DNA of 62,457 nt from NCBI GenBank assembly GCA_021776215.1, contig JAJFGI010000028.1:1-62457 (forward strand), in the 5' to 3' direction. Each line of letters opens with the position of its first letter. The first letter of the stretch is position 1. The notes beneath the pieces were generated by a model. The model did not search any database and was not told the DNA's origin. It saw only the letters and a program-made list of their open reading frames with translations. Positions 33,344 through 52,588 of this stretch are shown here, one piece after another. The translations under genes and the position numbers were made by a program. This DNA is from Kiloniellaceae bacterium (lineage in GTDB: Bacteria; Pseudomonadota; Alphaproteobacteria; Kiloniellales; J153).

Positions 33344-34039
33344 CTAGTAGTTGGCAAGCGACTTTAATTCAGCGTACCTGGCTACGGCCTCGGTGCGATT
33401 CTCTACATTGAGCGAGCGAAAGATCCGAGACGTGTGCATTTTCACGGTTCCCGGGGTCAGACCAAGTCTGCTCGCGATAGCCTTGTTCGATTTGCCGAGG
33501 GCCATCAGCTCAAGCACCTCCATTTGGCGCGGCGTCAGGCCCATGTGCCCGCTCTTTCCCCCCTTGGTGCCCGGCTCATTGAGCTCATCGGGCTCCTGGC
33601 CCCTTTTTCCCATTGAGCGTGTCAGGCGCAAGACGTCGGGCGGCACATAAACGCCCCCCGACAGCACGAGCTTGATGGCGCTGATCGTTATCTCCGGCGA
33701 GGAGGTCTTGGGAATGTAGCCCATGGCGCCCGCCTCGAGCGACTCTCGGATCGCCGCTATGTCATCCTTGACCGACACGACAATCACCGGAACGTCGGGC
33801 CAACCGTGGCAGATCTTGCGGATCCCAGCGGCGCCATTCATGCCTGGCATGAGAAGATCCGAAAGCAGCAGATCGACCGGCTCATCGCCGGCGAGGCAGG
33901 CCAAGGTCTCGGCAAAGTCGCTGGTCTCGGCGATGGTGGCGTTCTTGTCGAATATCTTGACCATCAGCGCCAGTCCACCGCGCACCAAAGCATGATCATC
34001 CGCAACAACGATGCGAAGCGGCCGTTCGTCGTGATCCAT
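33344..34039 (-). CDS. LuxR/FixJ-family response regulator (REC + HTH_LuxR)
   Basis: Track ORF 33344..34165. The start was chosen at MDHDERPLRIVVADDH. The phospho-acceptor context is LLLSDLLMPGMNG. The C-terminal HTH is LTPRQMEVLELMALGKSNKAIASRLGLTPGTVKMHTSRIF. Confidence 0.85.
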   Translation of the reverse strand: MDHDERPLRIVVADDHALVRGGLALMVKIFDKNATIAETSDFAETLACLAGDEPVDLLLSDLLMPGMNGAAGIRKICHGWPDVPVIVVSVKDDIAAIRESLEAGAMGYIPKTSSPEITISAIKLVLSGGVYVPPDVLRLTRSMGKRGQEPDELNEPGTKGGKSGHMGLTPRQMEVLELMALGKSNKAIASRLGLTPGTVKMHTSRIFRSLNVENRTEAVARYAELKSLANY

Positions 34040-34689: not shown

Positions 34690-36003
34690 ATGAAAGTCAG
34701 TCGCAGAACACTGCTCAAGGGCGCGATTTCCGGCGCCACTGTAGCGGCGGTTGGTGCCCCACACTTTTTCATTCCAAACCCAGCATTCGCTGCACCTTGG
34801 ATCGAGAAGGGAGGCAAGATCAAAGTCGGTGTTCTGTTCTCGCAGACGGGCAACCTGGCTGTCGTCGAGAACGACTCCACCCAGGTCGTGCTTTATGCGA
34901 TCGATGAGATCAACGCCAATGGCGGCGTTGCCGGCATGCAAGTCGAGCCGGTTGTCGTCGATGCCAAGTCCGACATCAAAGTCTACTCGGAAAAGATCAG
35001 CCAGCTGATTCTCCGCGACCGCGTGATTAGCACCTTTGGCGGCTATACCTCTGCCAGCCGACGTGCTGTCGCGCCGATTGTGATGGCGCGCGACCATCTC
35101 TTCTATTACCCGACCTGCTACGAAGGCCGCGAGTGCACGCAGAACATCATCAACACAGGCCCGCTTGCCAATCAGCATTCCCAGGACCTGATCCCCTTCA
35201 TGGTCGAGAACTTCGGCCCTAAGGTCTATCTGATAGGGTCGAACTACATTTGGCCCAAGGAGTCGAACAAGAACGCCAAAGTCTGGCTGGAGAGGGTCGG
35301 CGGCGAGGTCGTCGGTGAAGACTACGTGCCGCTTGGCGGCTCGGAGTTCACGCCGATCTTCAATAAGGTTCGCCAACAGCAGCCGAGCTTCATTTTCTCG
35401 ACCGTGGTCGGCGACTCCGACATCGCGCTCCACAAGCAGTATCTGCAAGAGGGCTTCAAGGTCGACAAGATGCCGATTGCCTCGCTGACCACGGGCGAGA
35501 TCGAAACCCGGGCCATGGGCGCGGAAGCCGGCGCCGGTCACTTCCTGTCCGCGCCCTATTTCCAGACCATGGAAAACCCGACGAATCAGCGCTTCGTCGA
35601 AGGTTACCTCGCCAGCAAGTACGGCGGTGGCGGCGTCACCCACTACAACATGGAGGAGACGTACCTCTCCGTTTATGTCTGGAAGCACGGTGTCGAGAAA
35701 GCCTTGGCGACTGCCGGCGACATTGAAGAAGTCACGCCACGCATGATTCGCGACGTGTCGGGCAACATCGAAGTCGGCGATGATATTTCTCCCGAAGGCC
35801 GCGTGTGGATCGATCCCGACAATTTCAACATCTGGCTGAAGCCGAAGATTGGCCAGTGCCAGTCCGACGGCCAGTTCAAGGTAATCAAGGCAGCCGACGA
35901 GCACGTCGGGCCCGATCCCATGTCCATCTATCCCGAGCGTGGCGTTTGCAAGGCCGACGGCCTGCACCAGCCGGACGGCACAGTCAAGACGAGCGTTCTC
36001 TAG
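34690..36003 (+). CDS. urtA: Tat-exported urea/short-chain-amide ABC transporter substrate-binding protein (UrtA/FmdD/AmiC family)
   Basis: Track ORF 34666..36003. I chose the start after SD aaggagg. Twin-arginine signal MKVSRRTLLKGAISGATVAAVGA. The blocks KVGVLFSQTGNLA, GGYTSASRRAV, YYPTCYEGREC, IASLTTGEIE and APYFQ resemble AmiC/FmdD more than cyanobacterial UrtA, as far as I recall those sequences. Confidence 0.8.
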   Translation: MKVSRRTLLKGAISGATVAAVGAPHFFIPNPAFAAPWIEKGGKIKVGVLFSQTGNLAVVENDSTQVVLYAIDEINANGGVAGMQVEPVVVDAKSDIKVYSEKISQLILRDRVISTFGGYTSASRRAVAPIVMARDHLFYYPTCYEGRECTQNIINTGPLANQHSQDLIPFMVENFGPKVYLIGSNYIWPKESNKNAKVWLERVGGEVVGEDYVPLGGSEFTPIFNKVRQQQPSFIFSTVVGDSDIALHKQYLQEGFKVDKMPIASLTTGEIETRAMGAEAGAGHFLSAPYFQTMENPTNQRFVEGYLASKYGGGGVTHYNMEETYLSVYVWKHGVEKALATAGDIEEVTPRMIRDVSGNIEVGDDISPEGRVWIDPDNFNIWLKPKIGQCQSDGQFKVIKAADEHVGPDPMSIYPERGVCKADGLHQPDGTVKTSVL

Positions 36004-36189
36004 AAGGCCGTGCAATCGCTGCTGCATCGCGGGTGCCTCCGAGCGTCGCGATGCAGCAGTTCTCGGACCCGGCAGACTTCGATCGCACTGACAATGTCCG
36101 ACGTTGGTGCGTTGGAAATCGCCAGGGCGCCGGGAGATCGTCGCCCGAGTATCGCGACCTTCTGGTGGAACAAATGCCGGAGCTAGGCA

Positions 36190-37092
36190 ATGAGTGTTAA
36201 TGATTTCTGGACCCCATTCGCGCTACTGCCCTTTCTGAATGCGCTGATAATCGGGATCAGCCTGATTAGCATTTGGCTGATTGCCGCTCTCGGGCTCACA
36301 ATCATCTACGGCACGATGGGTGTCATCAACATGGCGCACGGCGAATTCATCATGCTCGGCGCCTACTCGACCTATGTGCTCCAGACGCTCATCGGCATTC
36401 CCTTCCTGCTCTGCTTACCGCTGTCCTTCCTCATCCTGGCGGCGATCGGTTGGGTTATCGAACGAGGGGTCATAAGAACGCTCTATCGCAGACCCTTGGA
36501 CACGCTTCTCGCGACCTGGGGCCTTTCCCTGATCCTGGTGCAGGGAGTCCGCCTGATTTTCGGCGGAGAACCGCAGTACGTGGGCGTGCCGAGCTGGCTC
36601 AACTTTCAGATTCAAGCGGATTTCATCCACCTCTCTGGGCTGCGACTCTTCATCATCGTCATGGCGATTGTGATGGTGGCGGTGACTTGGTTCCTGCTGT
36701 ACCGCACCACGCTCGGTATTTGCGTTCGGGCGGTAATGCAGGACAAGGAGATGGCGGCGTCCTTCGGTATTGATGCGAACCGCATCTACAGCCTGACCTT
36801 TTGCTATGGAGCAGGGCTGGCCGGGGTCGCCGGGTCCATGTTCGGCGCGCTGAAGACTCTGTTTCCTGATATGGGCGGCGGCTACATCGTCGAAGCCTTC
36901 CTGGTAGTGGTGGTCGGCGGCGTTCAGCTCGCGGGAAGCGTGCTCAGCGCCAGCCTGCTGGGCGAGCTCAATTCGATCTTCTCATACTTCACGAACGACA
37001 CCTTCGCTCGTTTCGTCCTTTTCACGCTCGTCGTGGTGTTCCTGCGCATTCGGCCGCAGGGCCTCCTCGCCGAGAAGATGACTCGACGCTAA
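36190..37092 (+). CDS. urtB: Urea/amide ABC transporter permease (UrtB-like, HAAT family)
   Basis: Track ORF, 300 aa. It is a polytopic LivH-like permease (GVINMAHGEFIMLGAY). Gene order matches the five-gene urt arrangement. Confidence 0.85.
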   Translation: MSVNDFWTPFALLPFLNALIIGISLISIWLIAALGLTIIYGTMGVINMAHGEFIMLGAYSTYVLQTLIGIPFLLCLPLSFLILAAIGWVIERGVIRTLYRRPLDTLLATWGLSLILVQGVRLIFGGEPQYVGVPSWLNFQIQADFIHLSGLRLFIIVMAIVMVAVTWFLLYRTTLGICVRAVMQDKEMAASFGIDANRIYSLTFCYGAGLAGVAGSMFGALKTLFPDMGGGYIVEAFLVVVVGGVQLAGSVLSASLLGELNSIFSYFTNDTFARFVLFTLVVVFLRIRPQGLLAEKMTRR

Positions 37093-37119
37093 CCGGCGGC
37101 GCGCGGGGGAGTCAGCAAA

Positions 37120-38241
37120 GTGAACGGGAACATCTATCACAATCGCAAGGCCCAGTGGGCGATTTACCTCGCCGCCTTTGCCGCGCTGGCCCTGTTGCCG
37201 ATCTTCTTCGACAGTCCCTTCACGCTAAATCTATTGGCGCGCTACTGCGTCTTTGCTCTGCTTGCGGTTTCGGTGAGTCTCGTTTGGGGATACGCCGGGA
37301 TCCTGAGCCTGGGTCAAGCTATCGCCTTCGGCCTAGCGGCCTATGGCATGGCTATGACCATGCAGATGCAATACCAGGACCCGGTGAGCGACCCGATACC
37401 TAGCTTCATGCTGACCAACGAGCTGGAAACGCTGCCCCTGGTGTGGGCGCCCTTCTGGTCCACACCGATTGGCTTGATCCTGACTTTCGGGGTGCCGACG
37501 GTCTTCTTCATCGTCTTCGGAATTCTCATGTTCCAGGCCCGCGTGGCCGGTGTCTTCGTTGCCATAATGACGCTGGCGATGACCGCCGCCTGGTACAGCA
37601 TGGCCTATGACATGCAGCCCTTTACCGCCGGCTTCAATGGTATATCGCCGCCCTTGCCGTTCCAGATTTTCGGTACAGAGGTGGATCCCTACAGCGCCGG
37701 CGCCTACTGGGTCTGCGTTGCCTTCCTGGCCGTTCTGACACTGGGCGCCAAGTTTCTGATGCAGACCAAGTTCGGCCTGATCGTGCAGGCGATCCGCGAT
37801 GACGCGGAGCGGGCCCGCTTCCTTGGCTACAACGTCGCCTACTATCAGGTCGTCGTCTTCGCCCTCTCCGGCTTTCTCGCCGCCAGTGCCGGTTTCTGTT
37901 GGGTGTTGATCGTGCAGTACGTCTCGCCAACTTCGCTCGAGATCGTGTTCAGCATCTCGATTGTGATCTGGGCCGCGGTCGGCGGCCGTACCTCGCTGCT
38001 GGGGGCGATCATCGGGGCATTCCTGGTTAACGGCATGCAAAGCTTCGTTGGTGATGAGCTGCAGCAGGTCTGGATGCTCATCCTGGGAGCCATCTTTATT
38101 GGCGTGGTGCTGTTCCTGCCTAGAGGCTTGGCCGGCTTCTTCGAGCTGGTGCTCGGCCTGTTTTCCGGCCGTCGTGAACCGCAGAAGAGCGACTGGAACA
38201 CGGGGCGCACCTCGGCTGTGACCAAGGAATCGGCAGAATGA
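37120..38241 (+). CDS. urtC: Urea/amide ABC transporter permease (UrtC-like)
   Basis: Track ORF, 373 aa, GTG start. It is a LivM-like permease (GYAGILSLGQAIAFGLAAYG). It overlaps the next gene by ATGA. Confidence 0.85.
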   Translation: MNGNIYHNRKAQWAIYLAAFAALALLPIFFDSPFTLNLLARYCVFALLAVSVSLVWGYAGILSLGQAIAFGLAAYGMAMTMQMQYQDPVSDPIPSFMLTNELETLPLVWAPFWSTPIGLILTFGVPTVFFIVFGILMFQARVAGVFVAIMTLAMTAAWYSMAYDMQPFTAGFNGISPPLPFQIFGTEVDPYSAGAYWVCVAFLAVLTLGAKFLMQTKFGLIVQAIRDDAERARFLGYNVAYYQVVVFALSGFLAASAGFCWVLIVQYVSPTSLEIVFSISIVIWAAVGGRTSLLGAIIGAFLVNGMQSFVGDELQQVWMLILGAIFIGVVLFLPRGLAGFFELVLGLFSGRREPQKSDWNTGRTSAVTKESAE

Positions 38242-38981
38242 GCCTGCTCGAGCTGAAGGACGTAACCAAGGTCTACAACGACTACGTCGCGGTCGAGAAT
38301 TTCAATTTCAGCGTCACGGACGGCGAGCTTCGCTGCCTGCTGGGCCCGAACGGTGCCGGCAAGACGACCTGCATCGACCTGATCACCGGCCGTCAGAGGC
38401 TGACGTCCGGAGCGATACTTTTCGCCGGCGACGACATCTGCCGACTTCCGGAACAGTCGATCGCCCGGCTCGGGATAGGCCGCAAGTTCCAGGTGCCGGC
38501 CATTTTCAAAGAGCTGACTGTAGAAGACAACCTGGAGGTTGCTTTCAGCCGGAAAAAAGATCCCTTCGCCAACATGATGACCTTGCATCGATCGTATGGC
38601 CAGAAGCGCTATGACGAGATCGTTGAGTTGGTTGGCCTGAAAGATCGCCTCTCTAGCCAGGCTGGACTGCTGTCGCACGGCGAAACGCAGTGGCTGGAGA
38701 TCGGCATGGTTCTCATGCAGGACCCCCGCCTTCTGCTGATGGACGAGCCGACGGCCGGCATGACCGAGCAGGAGACGATGAAGACGTCGGAAATCTTTAA
38801 CTCCCTAAAAGGCAGCCACACTCTCGTCGTGGTCGAGCACGACATGTCGTTCGTGCGGGAAATCGCCGACATCATCACCGTCATGCACATGGGAACCATG
38901 CTGGCCGAGGGCACCTTGGAGGAGATCGGAAACGATCCTCGGGTGAAGGAGGTTTATCTGGGCTCGGAGGGGCTTGGTTGA
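38238..38981 (+). CDS. urtD: Urea/amide ABC transporter ATP-binding protein (UrtD-like)
   Basis: Track ORF, 247 aa. Walker A is GPNGAGKTT. The UrtD-typical GIGRKFQVPAIF is present, along with the signature LSHGETQWLEIG and Walker B LLLMDEP. Confidence 0.85.
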   Translation: MSLLELKDVTKVYNDYVAVENFNFSVTDGELRCLLGPNGAGKTTCIDLITGRQRLTSGAILFAGDDICRLPEQSIARLGIGRKFQVPAIFKELTVEDNLEVAFSRKKDPFANMMTLHRSYGQKRYDEIVELVGLKDRLSSQAGLLSHGETQWLEIGMVLMQDPRLLLMDEPTAGMTEQETMKTSEIFNSLKGSHTLVVVEHDMSFVREIADIITVMHMGTMLAEGTLEEIGNDPRVKEVYLGSEGLG

Positions 38982-39677
38982 ATGCTGGAGCTCGTGGACG
39001 TCACGTCTTTCTATGGAAAGACCCCGATTATAACCAATGTGAGCCTCTCGGTACCGAAAGGCGCTTGCCTCTGCGTGCTCGGACGCAACGGAGTCGGCAA
39101 GACGACGCTTCTGCAAACCATCATGGGTCTCACCACGCGCCTGACTGGCAGCCTGCGCGTCGGAGGCGAAGACACCTCCGCTCAGCCGACCCACAAGCGC
39201 GCCAAGCTCGGTCTGGGTTATGTGCCGCAGGGGCGGCGCATTCTCGGTAAGTTCTCGGTTCGGGAGAACATCCAGCTCGGCACGTTCGCTCGCGGCGACG
39301 GCCATCATGCGGTGCCCGAGGCCTGTCTTGAAATCTTTCCCTACCTGAAGGAAAACCTGGACAAGCGCGCCGGTCTGCTGTCGGGAGGCCAGCAGCAGCA
39401 GTTGGCGATCGCTCGGGCTCTCGCGACCGACCCGCAGATTCTCCTACTCGATGAACCGACCGAGGGGATACAGCCCAACATCGTGTCGGAAATCGAACAT
39501 GTTCTGCAGCGTCTGAATAGCGAATTGAACCTTACGCTCGTGCTGACAGAGCAGCACATCAAGATCGCCAAGAAACTGGCCGATCTCTTCATCATCATGG
39601 ATGCCGGGCGGATAGTCGCCCGAGGCGAGATCGGCGAGCTGACCGACGATCTCCTGCACCGTTATCTGACGATCTGA
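38982..39677 (+). CDS. urtE: Urea/amide ABC transporter ATP-binding protein (UrtE-like)
   Basis: Track ORF, 231 aa. Walker A is GRNGVGKTT, with YVPQGRRI, the signature LSGGQQQQLAIARAL and Walker B LLLDEP. Its start abuts the urtD stop (TGAATG). Confidence 0.85.
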   Translation: MLELVDVTSFYGKTPIITNVSLSVPKGACLCVLGRNGVGKTTLLQTIMGLTTRLTGSLRVGGEDTSAQPTHKRAKLGLGYVPQGRRILGKFSVRENIQLGTFARGDGHHAVPEACLEIFPYLKENLDKRAGLLSGGQQQQLAIARALATDPQILLLDEPTEGIQPNIVSEIEHVLQRLNSELNLTLVLTEQHIKIAKKLADLFIIMDAGRIVARGEIGELTDDLLHRYLTI

Positions 39678-39771
39678 TGTCGCATTGGAGGTATCCGGAA
39701 GCGGCAACAGCTTGAGCATCGGCAGGGCGCCGCTGGGGTTGGCGCCGAGGACAAACAGAAAGGAGACGGCA

Positions 39772-40221
39772 ATGATTCCGATTCCAAAGAAAGGCACACC
39801 TGAGCGCGCTCGGCTTATCGCGGAGCACAAGGCTTGCATCGATTCCATGAAAGGCGTGGCCGGATGTACCATCCTGCGCTGTGCCACGCCTGGGGATACC
39901 ACCGAAGTGTCGGGGGGAATCCACGAAGACTTCTTGCTCAACCGCGTACTCCTGCGCATGCGCGCCATGAACCCCGCCGACGGCAAGGGCAAATTGGTCG
40001 TGATCTGCACCAAGATCGAAAAGGAATGGCGGATCGGGCGCCTCGCGGGCGTTCGCGGCGTGCCGCCGACCTTTGTCGGAGACAAGATTTACGACAATGA
40101 GCAGGATCCCCAGCACGACATCTTCGTGATGCGCCTCGACGAGATGGAGGAGTTCGACGGATATCCGGAGCATTTCCGGGAAGGCTGGAAACGGCGGGAT
40201 GACAACTGGACCAGAACCTGA
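39772..40221 (+). CDS. N,N-dimethylformamidase small-subunit-like protein
   Basis: Track ORF 39685..40221. The start was chosen after SD aaaggaga. The segment EKEWRIGRLAG...GDKIYDNEQDPQHDIFVMRLDEMEE parallels the C-terminal part of the DMFase small subunit as I recall it (EREWDAYRIA...GDERFKTEEEAMHAVFLRRIEDV). Its position directly upstream of the large-subunit homologue supports the call. Confidence 0.5.
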   Translation: MIPIPKKGTPERARLIAEHKACIDSMKGVAGCTILRCATPGDTTEVSGGIHEDFLLNRVLLRMRAMNPADGKGKLVVICTKIEKEWRIGRLAGVRGVPPTFVGDKIYDNEQDPQHDIFVMRLDEMEEFDGYPEHFREGWKRRDDNWTRT

Positions 40222-40392
40222 ACATTCGGTCGTAGGGGTCTTGCGTCGGAAATATCAGCGCAATTCAGATGTGCGGCCACTGGGTCGCGCGAGGCAAGGC
40301 ATAAACAGCCGGGCCAAACCGTAGCCAAGCGAGCGTCGCTTGAAGGTCGTCAAACACAACGGCGACCGTTCGAAGATAGAGGGAGTGCAGCC

Positions 40393-42792
40393 ATGTGCGC
40401 TATGCGATTGACCGGCTACGCCGATTTGTTCGGTGTCAACCCGGGGAAGACCATTCAATTCTACGTCAATTGCGACGGCCCCAAAAACTACAAGGCCGAA
40501 ATCGTGAAGATGATCCACGGGGACACGAATCCCCGTGGGCCTGGACACATCGAAGAAAAGGTCAATGCCGACTGCGATGGGGAATACCCCGGGCGCAAGC
40601 AGGTCATCTATAGCGGCTCCTATGGAGTCCTGGCCGACAATCGGCATCTGCAGGCCGAGTCCGTCACGCTGCAATGCTGGGTCTGGCCGACCATGCCGAA
40701 AACCCACCCCAAGTACTGGAAGCACGGCGCGCAGGGCCTCATGACCAAGTGGTGCGATGGCAAGGGATACGGGCTGTTCATAAACGAGGAGGGCTGCCTG
40801 GAGTTTCGCGTCAACGGTGAGCGGATCACGACGGGCGTGCCCATTCGCGACCATGCCTGGCACTTCGTGGCGGCGACCTACGACGCCAAAAGCGGCAAGG
40901 CGGTGCTCTTTCACGAGCCGCAGATCCAATATGCGCTCGACCCCGAGATCCCGCCGGTCGAAAAGAAACTAGGGGTGAAGATCGAGCACACGGCGCGTGT
41001 GCCCTTTGCGGTGGCGGCCTATGTCGATCGTCTCGACAAGGGCGCATTAGCTCAGGCTTCGGTACCGGCCGGCATCGTCATGGCGGGGCACTACAGCGGC
41101 AAGATCGATAGCCCGCGGCTTTGCGACCGGGCGCTCAGCCGGCAGGAGATCGAAACCATGAAGCTCGGGGCGCAGCCGGGCCTGACGGAGCGTCGTCACT
41201 CCGGCCCAACCGGCGCTCTTTCCGAGTGCATCGTCGGATCGTGGGATTTTTCCGACGGCATCAACACAATCGTCGGTCGGGATCTCGGGCCCTATCTCTA
41301 CGATCTGCAGATCGTGAATTGCCCCACGCGTGCCATGACCGGGCACAACTTCTCGGGCCACAACTTCGACTGGAAGCACGCGCCCAAGGAGTATGGCGCC
41401 ATACACTTTCACGACGACGACATCGACGATGCCCGCTGGGCGGTTGATTTCGAGTGGACCGTCCCGAGCAACCAGAAGAGCGCCTTCTATGCCGTGAAGC
41501 TAACGACCAGCAAAGGCGACGAGGACTACATCCCCTTCTGGGTCGTTCCGGAAGTCGGGAAGGCTAAGGCCAAGATCGCCTACATGGTGCCAACCATCAG
41601 CTACATGGCTTACGCCAATGAGCATTTGGCGAACAACGCCGGCGGCGCCGAGCTTTTGGTCTATCGCGTGCCGATCATGCAGGACCAAAACATGTTTCTT
41701 AGCGAGCACCGCGAGTACGGCGGCTCGATCTACGATACCCATACGGACGGCAGCGGTCTTTGCCTGTCCTCGCGGTTGCGCCCGATTCTAAGCATCCGGC
41801 CCAAGTACGACCATTTCCTCATGCAGGCGCCGTGGCAATATCCGGCGGATCTGCATATGATCTACTGGCTCGAGACAATGGGCTACGACTACGACGTCAT
41901 CACCGATGAGGACGTCACCTATGATGGCTTGGCCCGCCTCGAGCAATACAGCGTGGTGATCACCGGATCCCACCCCGAGCACAACACTGGATCTCAACTC
42001 GACGCGCTGCACAACTATACACAGCAGGGCGGCCGCCTGATGTACATGGGCGCGGATGCCTGGTACTGGGTCCATTCCTATCATCCCGCCTATGACCATC
42101 TCGGCCGGGGCATCGTCACCGAGATGCGGCGCTGCGAGTCCGGCATCCGGACTTGGCGGGCCGATCCCGGCGAGTACTACCACCAAGGTACCGGCGAACT
42201 CGGCGGTATGTGGCGATATCGTGGCCGCTATCTGCATTCGGTCGCGGGCACCGGTATGTCGTCGGAAGGTTTCGACATCTCGAGCTACTATTCGCGCACG
42301 CCGGAGAGCAACGACCCTCGAGTCTCCTGGGCCTTCGACGGCATCGACTTCGACGAGAAGCTCGGCAACTTCGGCCTGGTCGGCGGTGGTGCCGCGGGGA
42401 CCGAACTCGACATTGTCGACACGATGTTGGGCTCGCCACCCCACACCCTCGTGGTGGCCACCTCGGCCGGACGGCACACCGAGGCCTATCTTCTGGTCAT
42501 GGAGGACTTCGGCTTCAACCAGCAGGGGCTCGATGGCACACAGCATCCCCGGGTCCGTTCTGACATCGCCTATCACGAAACGCCGAACGGTGGCGCCTGC
42601 TTCGCCTTCAGCTCCATTGCCTTCTGCGGTTCCTTGCCGTGGAACAAATGCGACAACAATATCTCCAAGCTGGTCGGTAATGTGCTGAATCGGTTCATGC
42701 AGGACGGCCCCTTGCCACCGCCACCGGCGGACGCCTTTAAGCATCGCGGTCGCGCGGACTATGACCCGCCGACGAACAAGAAGAGAAAATAG
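40393..42792 (+). CDS. N,N-dimethylformamidase large-subunit-like amidohydrolase
   Basis: Track ORF, 799 aa. Multiple blocks match the characterised DMFase large subunit as I recall it: MIHGDTNPRGPG, SWDFSDGI, YGAIHFHDDDIDDARWAVDFEWTVPSNQKSAFYAVKL, EDYIPFWVVP, SYMAYANEH, ITGSHPEH, FGLVGGGAAGTELD, NNISKLVGNVLNRF. Confidence 0.8.
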   Translation: MCAMRLTGYADLFGVNPGKTIQFYVNCDGPKNYKAEIVKMIHGDTNPRGPGHIEEKVNADCDGEYPGRKQVIYSGSYGVLADNRHLQAESVTLQCWVWPTMPKTHPKYWKHGAQGLMTKWCDGKGYGLFINEEGCLEFRVNGERITTGVPIRDHAWHFVAATYDAKSGKAVLFHEPQIQYALDPEIPPVEKKLGVKIEHTARVPFAVAAYVDRLDKGALAQASVPAGIVMAGHYSGKIDSPRLCDRALSRQEIETMKLGAQPGLTERRHSGPTGALSECIVGSWDFSDGINTIVGRDLGPYLYDLQIVNCPTRAMTGHNFSGHNFDWKHAPKEYGAIHFHDDDIDDARWAVDFEWTVPSNQKSAFYAVKLTTSKGDEDYIPFWVVPEVGKAKAKIAYMVPTISYMAYANEHLANNAGGAELLVYRVPIMQDQNMFLSEHREYGGSIYDTHTDGSGLCLSSRLRPILSIRPKYDHFLMQAPWQYPADLHMIYWLETMGYDYDVITDEDVTYDGLARLEQYSVVITGSHPEHNTGSQLDALHNYTQQGGRLMYMGADAWYWVHSYHPAYDHLGRGIVTEMRRCESGIRTWRADPGEYYHQGTGELGGMWRYRGRYLHSVAGTGMSSEGFDISSYYSRTPESNDPRVSWAFDGIDFDEKLGNFGLVGGGAAGTELDIVDTMLGSPPHTLVVATSAGRHTEAYLLVMEDFGFNQQGLDGTQHPRVRSDIAYHETPNGGACFAFSSIAFCGSLPWNKCDNNISKLVGNVLNRFMQDGPLPPPPADAFKHRGRADYDPPTNKKRK

Positions 42793-42918
42793 CTTAATCT
42801 TCCGTGCTGTGGCCGGCCTGAGTTCGGATCGCAGCGCGGAGCCTGGATTGGGTGGCGGGCTCGCGCCAGAGTGCCGACCCGCCATCCCGATCCGGAGGCC
42901 AAAAGCAGGGAGCCGGCA

Positions 42919-44154
42919 ATGGCACAGCATCCAGATCTTGGCTACTTCGATGAAGGAGCGGACCTGACAGATGCCGGCCTCTATCAGTCGGCCCGACGCC
43001 CCTTTGGCCAGGCCAGCTTGCTGCCGGCCTTGACCTTTCGCTCCAAGGTCTTCAGCGCCCTCGAGGACGAGAAGATTTGGAGCCGCGGCTGGGTTGCCAT
43101 CGGTGTGCTGCCCGACATCCCCGAGGCCGGCGACCTCCTGCCCTTTACCGTCGGCAACCACGGCATCCATGTGCAGCGCAACGACGATGGCGGCCTGACC
43201 GGTCGCTTCAATAAGGCCCAGCACGGCGGTTGCAGGGCCGTGCCGTTGCAATGCCAGACCGGCAGCAAGACAAAGTGCTCCTTCACATCCTGCGGCTTCA
43301 GCCGGGACCGCGATGTCATTCCGGCGGGCGATCTGGCGGACGGCGCTCCGGCCATGCACCAGTATCTAGGCCTGGTTCCGGAGCGATTGCTTCCAGTGAA
43401 GATCGAAACCTTCGGGCCGCTCATCTTCGCCAATCTGGACCCTGGGAGCGACTCGTTGAGGCACACACTTGGCGATCTTCCGAGTCGTATCGGCGATCCG
43501 CTCGGAAGCGCCAACGCACTGTGCTGCAAGAGCTGGCTTGACATCCGGGCGAACTGGAAGCTCGCGGGAACCGATCTGTTCGAATCGCACAGCCCTATGT
43601 CCTCGACGGTTCCAGCACAAGCGATGTCCTTCGATGGCGACCGCAATGGCCCATACGTGCTGGAGACGTTGCCGCTGAATAACGGCCGGGTCAGCCATGC
43701 TAGGAATTTCGATCTTCCAGCCTTACCCGGTTTCTCTTCCGATCATGAAGGCCAGGCCGTGTTCTGCCGGGCTTTCCCGAATCTGCTTTTGGCGCTGCTG
43801 CCAAGCCATGTTGTCAGTATCATCGTCCAACCGTTGAGCATGACCGAAACCCGCCTGCGAATCTCTCTCCTTGCCGGCGAGGCGCACGGCAGAGACGCGG
43901 CCGCTGAAGCCCGACGGTTGCACGATAGCTGGAATGCGGCGATTCAGTGCAACGCAGCCCGAATCGAGTCCTTACAAGACTTTGTTGGCACCTGGGGTAC
44001 CGCAAGCCGCCCCGAAAGCGAGGGCGCGACTCTTCCGGTGGAAGTCTATCCCGAGCGCTATGAGTTTCAGCAATTCCTGATCGGCCGGATACTCGAGAAA
44101 CATATGCACTACTGGAACGCGCCGCTCTATGGCCGTGTGTCGTCAGCGGTCTGA
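42919..44154 (+). CDS. Rieske-type ring-hydroxylating-oxygenase alpha-subunit-like protein with non-canonical cluster and iron motifs
   Basis: Track ORF 42871..44154. The start was chosen at MAQHPDLGYF after SD agggag. The overall layout fits (W..IG...IPEAGDLLPFTVGNHGIHVQRNDDGGLTGRFN... then ANWKL...). However, the expected CxH...CxxH positions read AQH...CSFT, and the NWK...E..D.YH....H iron motif is not visible. Confidence 0.55.
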   Translation: MAQHPDLGYFDEGADLTDAGLYQSARRPFGQASLLPALTFRSKVFSALEDEKIWSRGWVAIGVLPDIPEAGDLLPFTVGNHGIHVQRNDDGGLTGRFNKAQHGGCRAVPLQCQTGSKTKCSFTSCGFSRDRDVIPAGDLADGAPAMHQYLGLVPERLLPVKIETFGPLIFANLDPGSDSLRHTLGDLPSRIGDPLGSANALCCKSWLDIRANWKLAGTDLFESHSPMSSTVPAQAMSFDGDRNGPYVLETLPLNNGRVSHARNFDLPALPGFSSDHEGQAVFCRAFPNLLLALLPSHVVSIIVQPLSMTETRLRISLLAGEAHGRDAAAEARRLHDSWNAAIQCNAARIESLQDFVGTWGTASRPESEGATLPVEVYPERYEFQQFLIGRILEKHMHYWNAPLYGRVSSAV

Positions 44155-44212
44155 CGCCTTGCGCGCGGCGAGGGCACCTATGGACAGCAGTGGAAGTGCG
44201 AAGGGGACAAAA

Positions 44213-44881
44213 ATGAAACTCAACGATGCGGCCAAGGAGGCCTACCTGCGCGGCGACTATGAGCAGGCCATGGAGCTCTGGCGTCCGCTGGCCGAGGCGG
44301 GCGACACAGAGGCGCAGGCCTGGATCGGGTCTCTCTATGCCAACGGGGAGGGGGTGGCCACCGATAGTGCGGTCGCCTTCTACTGGTACCTCGAAGCTGC
44401 GGAGCGCGGTTCCTTGCAAGCGCAGGCAAACGTGGGCGCATTGTATTTCATGGGGCAGGGTGTCGAGAAGAACCTGGATGAGGCCGTCAGGTGGCTTTCC
44501 GCCGCGGCTGATGGCGGCGATATCTACGCGATCTTCAACTTGGCGACGCTCTATGCAAAGGGGGAGGGCGTGCCGGAGAATCTGGAACGTGCCGCCAAGT
44601 ACTATCGCATTGCCGCCGAGCGCGGCCACTACCCTTCGCAATCGCGGCTCGGCTTCATGTACGCTCAGGGTCGCGGTCTATCGAAGGACCGCGTTCAGGC
44701 CTATCTCTGGCTCACCCTGGCGGCGCAGCATGGCATCGGAAGCGCCCTGACCGCCCTGGAATCGGTCATCGGGGACATGTCGGCCGAGGAGAAGGCTGAG
44801 GGCATGAGCCTGTTCGACGCGTGGCGTGGCAAGACGCAAGCTGTTTCCGGCCAGGGCGCCCTCTATCCGCAGCCCGCGTGA
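44213..44881 (+). CDS. Sel1-repeat (SLR/TPR-like) protein
   Basis: Track ORF 44129..44881. It carries five or six Sel1 repeats (AQAWIGSLYANGEGVATDSAVAFYWYLEAAERG, AQANVGALYFMGQGVEKNLDEAVRWL..., and so on). Confidence 0.8.
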   Translation: MKLNDAAKEAYLRGDYEQAMELWRPLAEAGDTEAQAWIGSLYANGEGVATDSAVAFYWYLEAAERGSLQAQANVGALYFMGQGVEKNLDEAVRWLSAAADGGDIYAIFNLATLYAKGEGVPENLERAAKYYRIAAERGHYPSQSRLGFMYAQGRGLSKDRVQAYLWLTLAAQHGIGSALTALESVIGDMSAEEKAEGMSLFDAWRGKTQAVSGQGALYPQPA

Positions 44882-44956
44882 GCAAGGCTCGCGACCGCCA
44901 GCAAGGGCGCGCCCACCGATGGAGACACAAGACCACCGAGAGACGAGGTTCCGGCA

Positions 44957-45262
44957 ATGGTTTACAGCGTCCAGCAGATCAAGTTCGAGATGCTCTCCTA
45001 CATGAAAGAGTATGGCGGCGGCTTCCACGACTGGTACGTGGGCGTGGCCAGCGATCCATTGTTGACCATGACGCAAGAGCACAAGGTCGACAAGGAACGG
45101 GACATCTGGCTCTACAAACAAGCCCTTTCTTTCACCGCGTGCAGAACGCTGCAACGCTATTTCCTCGAAACCCTGAAAACCGATGGCATTCCGGTGCAGA
45201 GGGGTGCCGACGATACCGATTGCATTTATCTGTACAAGAAGAGCGAGGAAACATCGCCGTGA
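44957..45262 (+). CDS. Hypothetical protein (101 aa)
   Basis: Track ORF. Codon usage is coding-like, and it is co-directional with its neighbours. I recognise no family. Confidence 0.45.
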   Translation: MVYSVQQIKFEMLSYMKEYGGGFHDWYVGVASDPLLTMTQEHKVDKERDIWLYKQALSFTACRTLQRYFLETLKTDGIPVQRGADDTDCIYLYKKSEETSP

Positions 45263-46972: not shown

Positions 46973-48364
46973 ATGCGTGGGGATAAAGGCTCCAGGGGCG
47001 AAAAGACAGCCCAGCGAACGGACCCGGGCAAGGACAGTTCTGCCGGTCGAGGGGCCCCATCGCTGAGCAGACGCGGCTTCGTTCGTTCCTCATCGGCTCT
47101 GGCGGCCTCGGCTTGGCTGCCCGGATTGCCCTTTGGCGCGCACTCCACTCCGAGGTCGCCTTGGATTACGCGACGGGGAACGATCAAGATCGGCTTGCTC
47201 TGGTCTCTGACCGGACATCTGTCGGTGATAGAGAAGCCCTCCCGCGACGTCGGGCTGTTCTGGATCGACTCCATCAACAAAGGCGGAGGCATAGCCGGAA
47301 TTCTCATCGAGCCCATCGTGATCGACGCAATGTCGGATATGAGGACCTATCGGCAAGGTGTCCTCGACATGATGCTGAAGGAGAACGTGCTGGCCATTTT
47401 TGGCGGCTACACTTCGGCCAGCCGTCGGGCCGTCATGCCGCTGGTCACGCTCAATGGCGGCCTTTTCTATTACCCGACCTGCTACGAAGGGCGGGAATGC
47501 TGGCAGCACATCATCTGTACCGGTCCGATAGCCAATCAGCATTCCTTCGATCTGATACCCTACATGGTGGAGAACTACGGTCCGCGCGCCTACTTCATCG
47601 GTTCCAACTACGTTTGGCCCAAGGAGTCTAATCGCAATGCCCGCCGCTGGCTCAAGGACGCTGGAGGCGAATTGGTCGGCGAAGCCTACATGCCGTTGGG
47701 TTTAGATCACTTCGATCCGATCTTCAGGGATGTGAAACGGCAGCATCCCGACTGGATCTTCTCCACGGTCATAGGGGACTCCGACGTCTACCTGCGCCAG
47801 CAGTACATCAAGGCGGGTTTCACGCCCGACAAGCTGCCGACCGCATCGCTGACGACCTCCGAGATGGAGGTCAAGATGATGGGCTTCGAGTACGGCGAGG
47901 GGCACATTCTGTCGGCGCCTTACTTTCAGAGCCTGAGCAATCCCGCCAACGAGAGGTTTGTCGAAAAATTCCTCGACAGCCCTTACGGCGAGAGCGGCGT
48001 GACCCATTACAATATGGAGGAGACTTACCTGGCTTTTCTGTACTTCCAGAAAGCAGTCGAAAGAATCGTAATGGCGGAGGGGCCGCCGGCCCTTACGCCG
48101 GCCAACGTCAGGCGTTATTCCGCAGACCTCAAGCTGACGGCGGACGAATCTCCCGAGGGAGCGGTCCATCTCGACGCCAACAACTTCAATAGCTGGCTTA
48201 CGCCCAAGATCGGACGCTTCACGGGCAAGGGTCAGATCGAAGTTCTGTTCGAGCAAAAGCACAAGATTCCGCCGCTGCCTTACCTGCTCTATCCCAATCG
48301 CGGGCGGTGCGAAGAAGACGGGCTGCATCTGCCGGGCGGCAAGGTCGTTAAGGCGGCTTCCTAG
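46973..48364 (+). CDS. Orphan Tat-exported AmiC/FmdD/UrtA-family amide/urea-binding protein (paralogue of 34690..36003)
   Basis: Track ORF 46931..48364. The start is uncertain (TTG at 46931 or ATG at 46973). Twin-arginine motif LSRRGFVRSSSALAASAW. Long blocks are shared with the first binding protein (GGYTSASRRAV, YYPTCYEGREC, IGSNYVWPKESN, ASLTTSEMEV, GVTHYNMEETYL). No permease or ATPase follows. Confidence 0.8.
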   Translation: MRGDKGSRGEKTAQRTDPGKDSSAGRGAPSLSRRGFVRSSSALAASAWLPGLPFGAHSTPRSPWITRRGTIKIGLLWSLTGHLSVIEKPSRDVGLFWIDSINKGGGIAGILIEPIVIDAMSDMRTYRQGVLDMMLKENVLAIFGGYTSASRRAVMPLVTLNGGLFYYPTCYEGRECWQHIICTGPIANQHSFDLIPYMVENYGPRAYFIGSNYVWPKESNRNARRWLKDAGGELVGEAYMPLGLDHFDPIFRDVKRQHPDWIFSTVIGDSDVYLRQQYIKAGFTPDKLPTASLTTSEMEVKMMGFEYGEGHILSAPYFQSLSNPANERFVEKFLDSPYGESGVTHYNMEETYLAFLYFQKAVERIVMAEGPPALTPANVRRYSADLKLTADESPEGAVHLDANNFNSWLTPKIGRFTGKGQIEVLFEQKHKIPPLPYLLYPNRGRCEEDGLHLPGGKVVKAAS

Positions 48365-48407
48365 CTACATGAGGCAAATTGTCACCGTCAGTTTCGAGGT
48401 TTGAATA

Positions 48408-50722: not shown

Positions 50723-51190
50723 ATGCACCTAGTCACCTCCTTACTCGGCAACGCGGATGACCCGGAGCTTCATGACGTGCTGCACCGCCTCGAACACGCC
50801 GGGCGGGTCGAGTGGCTGGTGCTGCCCCGCGCCGATATGGCGCGCCGACGCCTACGCGCTGTCACGGACCAGGGCAGCGAAATCGCCGTTGCGCTGCCGC
50901 GCGATGTCTCCCTGTTCGACAAGGCGGTGCTAGTGCTAAGCGACAATCAGGCCGTGGTGCTGCGGGTCGAGGCGGAAAACTGGCTCTGCCTCAAGCCCCA
51001 CGATCAGGCGGCCGCGCTCGCCCTAGGCTACCACGCCGGAAATCTGCACTGGCGCGTGCGATTTGACGGCGCGGTGCTACAGGTCGCATTGGAAGCCCCC
51101 GTCGAAAGCTACGTCCAACGGCTACACACCTTCATCGAGGACGGCCGAGTCTCCATCGAGCCGCCAGCAGTGGCAGCGCAAGGAGAATAG
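50723..51190 (+). CDS. ureE: Urease accessory protein UreE (no His-rich tail)
   Basis: Track ORF, 155 aa. It has the UreE N- and C-domain pattern (RRRLRAVTDQGSEIAVALPR, LGYHAGNLHWRV). The C-terminus ...IEPPAVAAQGE lacks a poly-His tract. Confidence 0.8.
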   Translation: MHLVTSLLGNADDPELHDVLHRLEHAGRVEWLVLPRADMARRRLRAVTDQGSEIAVALPRDVSLFDKAVLVLSDNQAVVLRVEAENWLCLKPHDQAAALALGYHAGNLHWRVRFDGAVLQVALEAPVESYVQRLHTFIEDGRVSIEPPAVAAQGE

Positions 51191-51192
51191 GG

Positions 51193-51870
51193 ATGACCGA
51201 CGATTTCCTTAACATGCTGCGTCTGCTACAAATTTCCGACAGTAGCTTTCCCACCGGCGGCTTCGCCTTCTCGAACGGTCTGGAAACTCTAGCCAGCGAA
51301 AGCGCACTGGCCACGGCCGACGATGTCGAGAGATTTCTGCGCGATCAACTGTTGACCCGCTGGGCGACCTTTGACCGCTGGTTCTTGGGCCGTGCGCTTG
51401 AAGCCGACGGTAAAATTCCCGTGCTCAGCGAACTGGACTGGCTCTGCGATGCCCAGAACAACGTGCATAGCCTCTCCGTGGCGTCGCGTCGCATGGGCCG
51501 TGCCATACTCTCCAGCCATGAGCGAATTGGTATGCCACAGGCAGGCGCTTATCTGGCGGCGATGCGCGACGAGACCGCCCTCGGTCACCTTCCCGTCGCG
51601 CAAGGCCTAGTCGCCGCGGGACTCGGGCTGCCCCGGAACATCGCGGAGGTCTCGGCGGTGCACCAACTGATTGTCGGCGCGCTGTCGGCGGCGATACGCC
51701 TCGGCAAACTCGGCGCCCTGCAGGCCCAGGTCATCCACACCGCCCTCACCCCTGCCATAGCTGACCTGCTGGATGCGCCCCTGCCGGAAGTGCCGCATAG
51801 CTTCACGCCGCTGGCCGACATTGCCGCGATGCGCCACGGCGACCATGCAACCCGTCTCTTCGCTGCCTAG
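51193..51870 (+). CDS. ureF: Urease accessory protein UreF
   Basis: Track ORF, 225 aa, with the family-typical [21 protein letters not shown]. Confidence 0.85.
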
Positions 51871-51884
51871 AGGGAACATTACCA

Positions 51885-52583
51885 ATGCTTCTTACTCCGA
51901 CGGAAATGGAAAGGCTGACCATCTACACCGCCGCCGAGATGGCGCGGCGGCGTCGACAAAAGGGACTGAAGCTGAATTACCCGGAAGCCGTTGCGCTGAT
52001 CAGCGACGAGATCCTGGAGGGCGCCCGCGAGGGGCGCAGCGTCTCCGACCTCATTTCCTTCGGTTCGACCATCCTCACCACCGATGACGTCATGCCGGGC
52101 ATCTCTGACATGATGCAAATGATCCAGGTCGAGGCGACTTTTCCGGACGGCACCAAGTTGGTGACAGTGCATGACCCGATCCGCCCCGGCGAGGAAGCCC
52201 TCGATGAAACGGCCGCTGCTCCGGGCGCCATTGTGGCCATGGATGGGGACATCGAACTCAACGCTGGCCGTGAAAAGACGGCGCTGAAGGTGCTCAACAC
52301 CGGCGACCGTCCGGTGCAAATCGGCAGCCACTTCCATTTCTTCGAGGTCAACAAGGCACTCAGTTTCGACCGCTCTGCCACGTTCGGCAAGCGTCTGGAT
52401 ATTCCCGCCGGCACTGCCGTGCGTTTCGAGCCCGGCCAAAGCAAGGAGGTCACCCTGATACCCCTTGGCGGCAAGGGCGTGGTCGGCGGTCTCAACGCAC
52501 TCACCAACGGCGAGACAGCCTCCGCCGATGCCAAGAAAGCAGCCCTGGAGCGGGCCCGCGCCGCCGGATTCAAGGGAGCTTAA
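51885..52583 (+). CDS. ureAB: Fused urease gamma/beta subunit
   Basis: Track ORF, 232 aa. The gamma part is [53 protein letters not shown]...[18 protein letters not shown]. After a short linker comes the beta part, [44 protein letters not shown]. Confidence 0.85.
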
Positions 52584-52588
52584 GCGTC

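Follow-up and report, generated by a model that had tools for sequence, protein, structure and literature searches.

A conserved gene arrangement linking a Urt-like ABC importer to a two-subunit enzyme of the dimethylformamidase family

Gene layout and the importer

The locus was analysed in a window of 62,457 nt from Kiloniellaceae bacterium GCA_021776215.1 (contig JAJFGI010000028.1). Between positions 34690 and 42792, a single strand (+) carries genes for a binding protein and a UrtBCDE-like importer, followed by open reading frames (ORFs) of 149 and 799 amino acids, all of them located where a first-pass annotation of the window had placed them. The urtE-like gene is separated by exactly 94 nt from the 149-aa ORF, which has AAGGAG 5′ of it, and a gap of 171 nt precedes the 799-aa ORF. 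A simple scan of the plus strand detected no terminator-like sites in either gap, and the 94-nt gap does not fold better than shuffled sequence (z −1.2), bearing out its earlier description as terminator-free. We infer that the importer and enzyme genes are co-transcribed. Strong hairpins are present 3′ of the binding-protein gene and of the large-subunit gene, so transcription may be partly uncoupled at these points. The conserved unit extends past 42792, with three further conserved genes at 42919–45262.

The periplasmic substrate-binding protein SBP1 (34690..36003, +; ATG at 34690) matches Peripla_BP_5 with 373 bits and carries a Tat signal (SRRTLLKG). It is followed on the plus strand by a UrtB-like permease (36190..37092; TIGR03409, 327 bits with a cut-off of 250.3), a UrtC-like permease (37120..38241; TIGR03408, 318.5 bits, cut-off 296.2), a UrtD-like ATPase (38238..38981; TIGR03411, 326.5 bits, cut-off 304.1) and a UrtE-like ATPase (38982..39677; TIGR03410, 290.2 bits, cut-off 285.8). 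Because UrtB–E exceed the equivalog cut-offs and a urease is adjacent in a third of the related loci, urea could be a, or the, transported substrate.

SBP1 reaches 332 bits against the UrtA model, under the cut-off of 492.75, and in overall sequence it is closer to the solved UrtA proteins (203–223 bits) than to AmiC (162 bits). By alignment, 11 of the 14 AmiC pocket residues, the set listed as within 5 Å of the AmiC ligand, are matched both in SBP1 and in a second binding protein of the locus, SBP2, compared with 7 of 14 in UrtA 7S6E. Equivalents of UrtA Gln107 and Asn206 are missing from SBP1 and SBP2, and the SBP1 pocket signature (YTS/YPTCY/Y.W/VVG/SLTT) is kept across the clade. SBP1 is predicted to resemble UrtA in its scaffold and AmiC in its pocket, which is largely non-polar; the resemblance to AmiC is confined to this pocket, and the argument for it is an alignment to AmiC and not a structure of SBP1. 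The initial view of this protein as AmiC/FmdD-like rather than UrtA-like holds for the pocket and for the failed UrtA cut-off, but not for the overall sequence.

The two-subunit enzyme

The large (beta) subunit of 799 aa (40393..42792, +) matches PF20254 DMFA2_C (304 bits) and chain A of the dimethylformamidase (DMFase) structure 6LVB (536 bits, E 1e-159), with 40–42% identity to DmfA2. Residues Y407, Y447, E529, H527 and E671 correspond to DMFase Y399, Y440, E521, H519 and E657, giving a predicted mononuclear Fe(III) site of the 2-Tyr-1-Glu type. The iron ligands expected in the first-pass annotation (Y399, Y440 and E521) are all kept in the alignment and, together with H519, E657 and F693, are invariant in 81/81 sequences of the clade. 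The motifs it cited as ligand-bearing, EDYIPF, SYMAYANE (Y399) and GSHPEH (H519/E521), are present, but Y440 sits in SIYDTH, which it did not cite. D555 of the large subunit stands at DMFase N547, a position that is Asp in every one of the 81 clade members; true DMFases and two further branches of the family retain Asn there. The DMFase N547A mutant is inactive (PMC7686228). The exchange of Asn for Asp at this oxyanion position might reflect chemistry other than simple amide hydrolysis, and the protein is no dimethylformamidase specific for DMF.

The small (alpha) subunit of 149 aa (39772..40221, +) was assigned through PF26354 DMF_alpha matches of its relatives, hhalign and Foldseek. Pairwise comparison gives 12.9 bits and an E-value of 0.64 with 6LVB_B (phmmer), and 30% identity to DmfA1 over 73 aa of the C-terminal part (blastp). 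Comparison by hhalign gives 86.7% and an E-value of 4e-6, and the AF2 model of the ORF has 6LVV_B and 6LVB_B as its top Foldseek matches (probability 1.0). Judged by profile and predicted structure, the ORF is a weak but true homologue of DmfA1, and methods of these kinds are needed to see the homology. The earlier statement that both ORFs match the DMFase subunits in many blocks is accurate for the large ORF and overstated for the small one.

The pair shares with DmfA1A2 (Paracoccus sp. DMF, 6LVB; P. aminophilus pAMI2; Methylobacterium sp. DM1 pLVM1) the adjacent small and large genes, the three-domain large subunit with conserved H519, E657, S395 and F693, and a LuxR-family regulator near by (dmfR). 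It differs in its identity of about 42% (large subunit) and about 30% over part of the small subunit, and in carrying Asp for Asn547. The true dmf loci of pAMI2 and pLVM1 are IS-flanked plasmid modules without importer or accessory genes, in agreement with the earlier remark that characterized DMFase loci lack a dedicated importer, whereas the genes described here are chromosomal and are accompanied by the importer and three extra genes. The closest relative (73% protein identity, also with Asp547) is encoded on the P. aminophilus chromid pAMI5 (JCM7686_pAMI5p063-064), together with a small subunit, a Rieske-like gene and a gene of about 100 aa. On pAMI5, however, an AmiS/UreI channel replaces the ABC importer and there is no Sel1 gene; the binding protein, kinase and regulator lie divergently upstream.

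Conservation, accessory genes and sensing

The large-subunit gene is followed by a gene for a degenerate relative of Rieske-oxygenase alpha subunits (42919..44154, +), recognized by a weak Ring_hydroxyl_A match and an invariant QHGGCR...C...C...C motif. Aligned with phthalate dioxygenase, it has AQH in place of CxH and CSFT in place of CxxH, and its catalytic domain contains no conserved His or Asp. Next are a Sel1-repeat protein without a signal peptide (44210..44881, +; Sel1, 4 repeats, 121 bits) and a conserved 101-aa protein (44957..45262, +) with no match in Pfam, NCBIfam or the PDB. Homologues of the latter follow the Sel1 gene in about 75 loci (on pAMI5, the Rieske-like gene).

This gene order is maintained in a clade that shows 68–99% identity over three classes, the Alpha-, Beta- and Gammaproteobacteria. 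The five importer genes lie directly upstream on the same strand in 49 of the 63 related loci with enough flank, and in six further loci, from Methylobacterium, a regulator pair is the only insertion between importer and enzyme. The small gene directly precedes the large gene in 75/76 loci, the Rieske-like gene directly follows it in 76/77, and the Sel1 gene is present in 73/73 loci with enough flank. Dozens of bacteria from soil and the sea have the importer–enzyme arrangement, often beside urease, and its recurrence in dozens of genera places the coupling far beyond chance; the first-pass proposal of an Urt/Fmd-type importer coupled to a two-subunit DMFase-like enzyme is borne out by gene order across the three classes. 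The clade loci are chromosomal, occur in isolates and metagenome-assembled genomes, and are common in genomes from marine and pristine habitats. Proteins annotated as DmfA have been found in open-ocean metaproteomes (PMC9477243).

A LuxR/GerE-type response regulator (33344..34039, −; Pfam Response_reg and GerE; likely start MDHDERPL) is encoded divergently from the importer operon, with a homologue at the same position in 38 loci. Further downstream, SBP2 (46973..48364, +; Peripla_BP_5, 329 bits; Tat signal), whose pocket-lining positions are those of SBP1, precedes a hybrid sensor histidine kinase (48408..50480, +; Pfam HisKA, HATPase and REC) with two transmembrane helices, a periplasmic domain and a match of 369 bits to the NahK/ErcS-family C-terminal model. 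In the closest relatives, too, the kinase gene comes next after that for SBP2, and among related loci the kinase, SBP2 and the LuxR regulator are found together. SBP2 is probably a ligand sensor, and the regulators of the locus are likely to be SBP2, the hybrid kinase and the LuxR regulator. A GAF-PAS kinase (31378), which had earlier been joined to the LuxR regulator as a two-component pair (31378–34039), is convergent with it and is not conserved with the operon, a match being obtained in one locus only, at 24%; the two do not form a pair, the conserved partners of the regulator being SBP2 and the hybrid kinase (46973–50480).

A urease cluster, ureE-ureF-ureAB(fused)-ureC-ureG-ureD, lies at 50723..55850 (+; NCBIfam and Pfam), as expected from the earlier placement of the locus upstream of urease. 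UreC (TIGR01792, 829 bits, cut-off 680), the fused gamma/beta subunit (359 bits, cut-off 243), UreE and UreG exceed their model cut-offs, and UreF and UreD were assigned by Pfam. A cluster of this type borders the operon in 28/81 loci, often beginning some 300 nt beyond the gene for the 101-aa protein; being recurrent, the linkage is no coincidence of the analysed window. AmiR with an AmiC-like protein, AmiE (717 bits, cut-off 427) and a TorF-family porin are encoded in 13, 13 and 11 loci, respectively.

Proposed function

We lean towards reading the locus as a conserved operon for the uptake and hydrolysis of a small natural amide-type nitrogen compound; the ligand class and the reaction are what we infer. 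SBP1 would capture the ligand in the periplasm and the UrtBCDE-like permeases and ATPases would import it. The cytoplasmic two-subunit Fe(III) enzyme would then cleave a C–N bond, yielding ammonia or a methylated amine and formate or another small acid. SBP2, with the same pocket, would report the ligand to the hybrid kinase and the LuxR-type regulator, a role that the AmiC/AmiR pair may take in other genera, and the Rieske-like, Sel1-repeat and 101-aa proteins would be accessory members of the unit. The earlier suggestion that a small amide or ureide is scavenged, probably not DMF, is supported by Asp547, by the AmiC-like pocket, by the spread of the chromosomal clade over three classes, by the DmfA-annotated proteins of open-ocean metaproteomes and by pAMI5, whose dmfA1-dmfA2-like pair was described as unrelated to DMF use; a strain without pAMI2 is unable to use DMF (PMC4543880).

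Known amide and urea systems resemble the locus in part. As in P. aeruginosa amiEBCRS, AmiC-type pockets are present, and related loci contain true AmiR, a cytoplasmic AmiC-like protein and AmiE, with AmiS on pAMI5; here, however, the binding proteins are exported, SBP1 serving an ABC transporter and SBP2 a histidine kinase, and the hydrolase is of a different family. The amidase of the FmdD-type system belongs to the FmdA/acetamidase family. A porin in some related loci is a feature in common with that system, but the present locus has a DMFase-family Fe enzyme and no FmdA-type gene. The five-gene architecture and adjacent urease are those of UrtABCDE, from which the locus differs by the amidase module between transporter and urease and by an SBP1 whose pocket lacks the Trp, Gln and Asn found in solved UrtA proteins.

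Acetamiprid is an N-cyano-amidine. Its amidase AceAB (Pigmentiphaga sp. D-2) is a two-subunit DMFase homologue that is inactive on DMF; it acts on a large xenobiotic, and no importer is described for it. As a precedent for the favoured reading, it shows that such homologues can have non-DMF substrates (PMC11573777). That a family member cleaves a C–N bond in acetamiprid is consistent with a rather unlikely alternative, in which an imported urea- or guanidine-related precursor (guanidine, methylguanidine, an acyl-urea or a substituted urea) is converted to urea and a second product, and the urease abutting 28/81 loci completes mineralization. Asp547 puts a carboxylate at the DMFase oxyanion site, where it would go well with an NH2 or iminium group, and 26 of 33 cultured hosts of the clade belong to genera regarded as methylotrophic, as would be in line with a methylated precursor that yields methylamine. 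However, the binding-protein pocket is mostly non-polar at the positions of the UrtA Gln and Asn and so ill suited to ligands of the urea or guanidinium type, the window and six representative loci contained no riboswitch, of the guanidine class or any other, two thirds of loci lack urease within 10 kb, and Urt-type importers often stand beside urease for ordinary urea use.

More doubtful still is the absence of any shared pathway, with the importer supplying urea to the urease and the DMFase-like module an unrelated operon between them. The scores of UrtB–E, the urease here and in 28 loci, and the hairpins and gaps of 94–186 nt between some genes point that way, but the importer accompanies the enzyme genes in 49/63 loci while urease is adjacent in 28/81, and neither SBP1, which fails the UrtA cut-off, nor SBP2 has the UrtA pocket. 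Moreover, pAMI5 has exchanged the importer for an AmiS/UreI channel and kept the binding-protein sensor, so the transport function travels with the enzyme. Very improbable is a true DMF/N-methylformamide catabolic operon, a dimethylformamidase with an added uptake system: the identity to DmfA2, the retained Fe ligands, H519, E657 and F693, the dmfR-like position of a LuxR-type regulator and the activity of DMFase on N-methylformamide and formamide would suit it, but the Asn547 on which DMF hydrolysis depends is replaced by Asp, the pAMI5 orthologue gives no growth on DMF, the highly conserved chromosomal clade is common in marine and pristine-habitat genomes, and real dmf loci are mobile-element-flanked modules of different content.

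Under the favoured reading, uptake and hydrolysis of a small amide-type compound, the operon together with the adjoining urease, and AmiE in some genomes, would form an island for the use of urea and short-chain amides.

Organization and conservation of the operon

The unit contains seven plus-strand genes between positions 34690 and 42792. The product of the first (34690–36003) is SBP1, a binding protein of 437 aa that carries a twin-arginine signal; two permease and two ATPase genes come next. After a gap of 94 nt comes the small-subunit ORF (149 aa, 39772–40221, plus strand), with an AAGGAG motif upstream, and after a further gap of 171 nt the large-subunit ORF (799 aa, 40393–42792, plus strand). 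A simple scan found no plus-strand terminator-like site in either gap, and the structure of the 94-nt gap is not unusual (z −1.2). Two long, near-perfect hairpins that lack a T-tract lie on the plus strand, one just 3′ of the SBP1 gene (36004–36060; z −2.6) and the other just 3′ of the large-subunit gene (42800–42900; z −3.4); both may stabilize the mRNA or act as attenuators, and in this way set the stoichiometry of the subunits. A pattern search for sigma-54 sites returned 28 matches against 27 expected, with none in the leader at 34.0–34.7 kb.

Large-subunit relatives number in the thousands, the best 120 being 76–99% identical. Eighty genomic loci from Alpha-, Beta- and Gammaproteobacteria were fetched, and the denominators given here for gene arrangement are the loci with enough flanking sequence. 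The five importer genes lie directly upstream on the same strand in 49 of 63 loci; the other 14 comprise six Methylobacterium loci that differ only by an inserted regulator pair, one Mesorhizobium locus with a divergent importer and seven loci without an importer. The large gene is adjacent to the small gene in 75/76 loci and to a Rieske-like gene in 76/77, while a Sel1 gene is present in all 73 and a gene of ~100 aa in about 75. The first-pass annotation had the coordinates, gap length and motifs right, and the genes that it assigned to the unit stand; its boundaries required correction, the unit being larger. In 28 of 81 loci the operon is bordered by a urease cluster of a single type (ureE-F-AB fused-C-G-D), which often begins straight after the ~100-aa gene; the window urease passes the urease models. 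Less frequent neighbours are AmiR with a cytoplasmic AmiC-like protein (13 loci), the aliphatic amidase AmiE (13 loci) and a putative porin of the TorF family (11 loci). As a raw and uncontrolled count, 26 of the 33 cultured hosts belong to genera that we take to be facultative methylotrophs (Methylobacterium, Methyloversatilis, Hyphomicrobium, Methylopila, Hansschlegelia, Ancylobacter, Xanthobacter and Methyloligella).

The Rieske-like gene (42919–44154, plus strand) aligns with Rieske oxygenase alpha subunits (phthalate dioxygenase, 50 bits). In the alignment, AQH and CSFT occupy the positions of the CxH and CxxH [2Fe-2S] ligands, and across 72 sequences no catalytic His or Asp is conserved in the C-terminal domain, the 2-His-1-carboxylate site being absent. 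Judged by these residues, the protein is not a canonical oxygenase. A role as N-demethylase partner was rejected, because the protein lacks the catalytic iron site and two of its four cluster ligands. Within the same gene, FNKAQHGGCRAVPLQCQTGSKTKCSFTSCGF (43207–43299, plus strand) is largely invariant, with four Cys and one His conserved, and may form a non-canonical metal or Fe–S site. No signal peptide was detected in the Sel1-repeat protein or the 101-aa protein, and profile and structure-database searches found no relatives of known type for the latter.

Several further features were observed in the window. A 488-aa predicted membrane protein with a faint DUF748 resemblance (45288–46754, plus strand) lies between the 101-aa gene and the gene for a second binding protein in the closest relatives only, at 24–41% identity. 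Antisense within ureC lies an Rfam 5_ureB_sRNA match (52770–53029, minus strand) that scores 46.5 bits, the gathering score being 40; its most likely source is conservation of the urease coding region, not an sRNA gene. Upstream of the operon are a 1971-aa ORF (5411–11326, plus strand) and an 808-aa MFS-domain protein (27346–29772, minus strand), and a tRNA gene (56191–56262, minus strand) lies downstream of the urease cluster.

A DMFase-family enzyme with an altered active site

The large subunit scores 304 bits against the Pfam model DMFA2_C (PF20254; cut-off 27) and 536 bits (E 1e-159) against the solved large subunit of N,N-dimethylformamidase (DMFase; 6LVB_A), and is 40–42% identical to DmfA2 of pAMI2 and of Methylobacterium sp. 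DM1. An exact-sequence look-up found no identical protein on record. Residues were compared in an alignment of the window protein, the two true DMFases (pAMI2 and DM1) and 80 relatives, which together with the window protein form a clade of 81 sequences. The iron ligands are all kept: Y399, Y440 and E521 (DMFase numbering) correspond to Y407, Y447 and E529 in the window protein and are invariant in the 81 clade sequences. The catalytic residues H519 and E657 (H527 and E671 in the window protein) are invariant in the clade, as are S395 and F693. The roles of the active-site residues, with mutagenesis as the basis for His519 and Glu657, are taken from the DMFase structural paper and its preprint (PMC7686228).

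The exception is Asn547, which is replaced by Asp555 in the window protein and by Asp in 81/81 clade members. Asn547 is kept in the pAMI2 and DM1 enzymes and in the Agrobacterium pAt and Halalkalicoccus homologues, the last two belonging to other branches of the family. This residue has been proposed as the oxyanion stabilizer, and the N547A mutant is inactive (PMC7686228). In total, the alignment contains 160 clade-specific substitutions in the large subunit, among them N547D, W525G, W531L, W604A, F611E and Y661V.

The adjacent 149-aa and 799-aa ORFs agree with the two-subunit composition of DMFase (~15 kDa and ~85 kDa). The small ORF had been presented as matching the DMFase small subunit in many blocks, which overstates a score of 12.9 bits (E 0.64) in a simple search; the homology itself holds. 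Pairwise BLAST gives 30–34% identity over about 73 residues, hhalign gives a probability of 86.7% (E 4e-6), and PF26354 (DMF_alpha) is precomputed on close relatives of the ORF. An AlphaFold model (pLDDT 63) matches the DMFase small subunits 6LVV_B, 6LVB_B and 6LVD_B in Foldseek with probabilities of 0.99–1.0; these are the only credible matches, the next having an E of about 2. By BLAST, hhalign, Pfam on relatives and Foldseek, the small ORF is thus homologous to the DMFase small subunit despite its weak simple-search score.

The DMFA2_C and DMF_alpha profiles place the enzyme in the DMFase superfamily. Of the features of N,N-dimethylformamidase sensu stricto (EC 3.5.1.56), it has the subunits, the iron ligands and His519/Glu657, but not Asn547. 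The annotation of the clade as dimethylformamidase is probably wrong.

Importer, binding-protein pocket and regulators

The permeases and ATPases all score above the NCBIfam equivalog cut-offs for urea transporters, some narrowly (UrtB 327 versus 250 bits, UrtC 318 versus 296, UrtD 326 versus 304 and UrtE 290 versus 286). SBP1 falls below the cut-off of the UrtA model (332.2 versus 492.75 bits), and a related locus encodes a cytoplasmic AmiC-like protein that reaches nearly as much on this model (317 bits). Among solved structures, SBP1 scores 265 bits with 8TG1, an unnamed receptor, and is nearer to UrtA than to AmiC by overall sequence, since it scores 203–223 bits with the solved UrtA proteins and 162 bits with AmiC. 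A literature search found no published work on PDB entry 8TG1 and the UrtA structures.

The predicted binding pocket differs from this overall likeness. Fourteen residues lie within 5 Å of the AmiC ligand (PMC13531289), and in the alignment SBP1 and the second binding protein, SBP2, are identical to AmiC at 11 of them (differences M84T, P107C and Y152W), compared with 7/14 for UrtA 7S6E. At the seven positions where AmiC and UrtA differ, SBP1 follows AmiC at four (Y83, T106, V206 and T233), has Thr at position 84 as in UrtA, and is unlike both at two, with an invariant Cys in place of UrtA Gln and AmiC Pro, and Trp at 152. The UrtA-type pocket, defined by Trp83, Ile/Val106, Gln107, Asn206 and Ser233 (AmiC numbering) in 7S6E, 7S6F, 8HIC and 8TG1, is absent from SBP1, which has Tyr, Thr, Cys, Val and Thr at the five positions. 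The SBP1 signature is kept throughout the clade. SBP1 is therefore predicted from sequence to have an AmiC-like pocket, contrary to its overall likeness to UrtA. Neither binding protein is an AmiC in the sense of a cytoplasmic AmiR-sequestering sensor: both carry Tat signals, and their partners are the ABC transporter (SBP1) and a kinase (SBP2).

SBP2 is encoded at 46973–48364 (plus strand), and the next gene (48408–50480, plus strand) specifies a hybrid histidine kinase that has a periplasmic domain. In the closest relatives, both co-occur with a LuxR-type regulator, encoded in the window at 33344–34039 (minus strand), divergent from the operon. In other systems a periplasmic binding protein docks on a hybrid kinase, and by analogy we infer a circuit from SBP2 through the hybrid kinase to the LuxR-type regulator, which would sense the same ligand as is imported. 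The LuxR-type two-component pair initially assigned to 31378–34039 is not a pair. Its GAF-PAS histidine kinase (31378–33111, plus strand) is convergent with the regulator and has no counterpart in the related loci; it was rejected as the cognate sensor and is probably unrelated to the operon, because it is not conserved beside the operon in other genomes.

In 13 loci (L021, L022, L025, L041, L043, L044, L049, L055, L057, L063–L065 and L067), an AmiR antiterminator (AmiR_N and ANTAR) takes the place of the kinase/LuxR pair. AmiR is paired with a cytoplasmic AmiC-like protein in the loci examined, L044 and L057, and true AmiC-like/AmiR pairs were found solely in loci other than that of the window.

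Relation to known systems and candidate function

The true DMFase loci of pAMI2 and pLVM1 have the order dmfR-dmfA1-dmfA2 with insertion sequences on their flanks, and lack the importer and the accessory genes present in the window. Loss of pAMI2 ends growth on DMF, whereas no link to DMF utilization was found for the closest annotated relative of the window pair, on the Paracoccus aminophilus chromid pAMI5 (73% identity) (Dziewit et al., PMC4543880); this speaks indirectly against DMF hydrolysis by the window enzyme. The pAMI5 pair is followed by a Rieske-like gene, a small conserved gene and an AmiS/UreI channel, with a binding protein, kinase and regulator divergent and upstream. AceAB, a two-subunit homologue, cleaves acetamiprid and has no activity on DMF (PMC11573777). 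A literature search found no published work on the beta-phenylalanine acylase homologue.

On pLVM1 of Methylobacterium sp. DM1, right after the bona fide dmfA2, lies a truncated UrtC/LivM-like permease ORF (L083:10890–11681) that is 28% identical to the window UrtC (E 1e-12). The ORF after that one, of 465 aa and annotated as hypothetical, is by appearance a multi-pass membrane protein. The arrangement may be what remains of an ABC importer beside a true DMFase. On Agrobacterium tumefaciens pAt (L084:1610–9319), a DMFase-family gene directly follows a five-gene Liv-type ABC importer; its product is 39% identical and keeps Asn547, and no small-subunit gene is annotated. Coupling to such importers is therefore wider across branches of the DMFase family.

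The overall first-pass reading, an importer coupled to a DMFase-like enzyme, is supported once three points are corrected: the pairing of the regulator, the match claimed for the small subunit and how far the unit extends. The best-supported explanation is that the operon, lying within an island for urea and short-chain amides, serves to import and hydrolyse a small, naturally occurring compound of amide type. The logic would resemble that of the ami operon and of fmdCABDEF, the formamide/urea system of Methylophilus (PMC10781810), with a DMFase-family iron enzyme as the hydrolase. In fmdCABDEF an FmdA-type hydrolase stands beside the importer, whereas no gene for an FmdA (acetamidase-family) formamidase was found between 31 and 56 kb of the window. 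The operon is widespread and uncharacterized, a variation on known kinds of system and not a category of its own. AmiE-type enzymes are not known to hydrolyse N-substituted formamides. The DMFase scaffold is able to cleave such compounds (PMC7686228). Because of this ability, the AmiC-like pocket and the methylotroph bias, the candidate substrate would be a primary or N-methyl amide of the formamide, N-methylformamide and acetamide class.

The chief alternative has the enzyme converting a urea or guanidine derivative to urea for the neighbouring urease. Both the close linkage of urease and the Asn-to-Asp switch favour it; the non-polar binding pocket counts against it, as does the lack of guanidine riboswitches, Rfam having returned no riboswitch match of any type in the operon and six related loci. 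In a stronger form, which we consider unlikely, the clade would be an Fe(III) hydrolase for a natural nitrogen-rich C1 compound other than a simple amide, such as guanidine, methylguanidine or an N-substituted or acyl-urea, with its urea product passed to a dedicated adjacent urease and the Asn-to-Asp switch fitting the scaffold of DMFase to a carbon of amidine or guanidine type. Were this true, the operon would be an unrecognized route of nitrogen mineralization in soils and oceans, and the clade the natural stock from which the solvent-degrading DMFase and AceAB were recruited. Methylenediurea deaminase activity, which yields urea and formaldehyde, was considered and dropped, because the subunit sizes of that enzyme would not fit.

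The paired binding proteins (SBP1 for transport and SBP2 for sensing, with one pocket type) offer a direct handle on the ligand. The solvent DMF is synthetic, and the papers on DMFase structure describe the enzyme's evolutionary origin as unknown. The clade is a concrete, testable candidate for the natural role of the DMFase family, because it is widespread, highly conserved and chromosomal, has its own high-affinity importer and ligand sensor, and is physically linked with urease and ami genes. Genomic surveys count all K03418 homologues as 'putative DMF degrader', and 'DmfA' has been reported in ocean metaproteomes (PMC9477243). Should the substrate of the clade be a natural amide or a compound of urea type, these annotations would be wrong and one route by which dissolved organic nitrogen is turned over would be going unnoticed.
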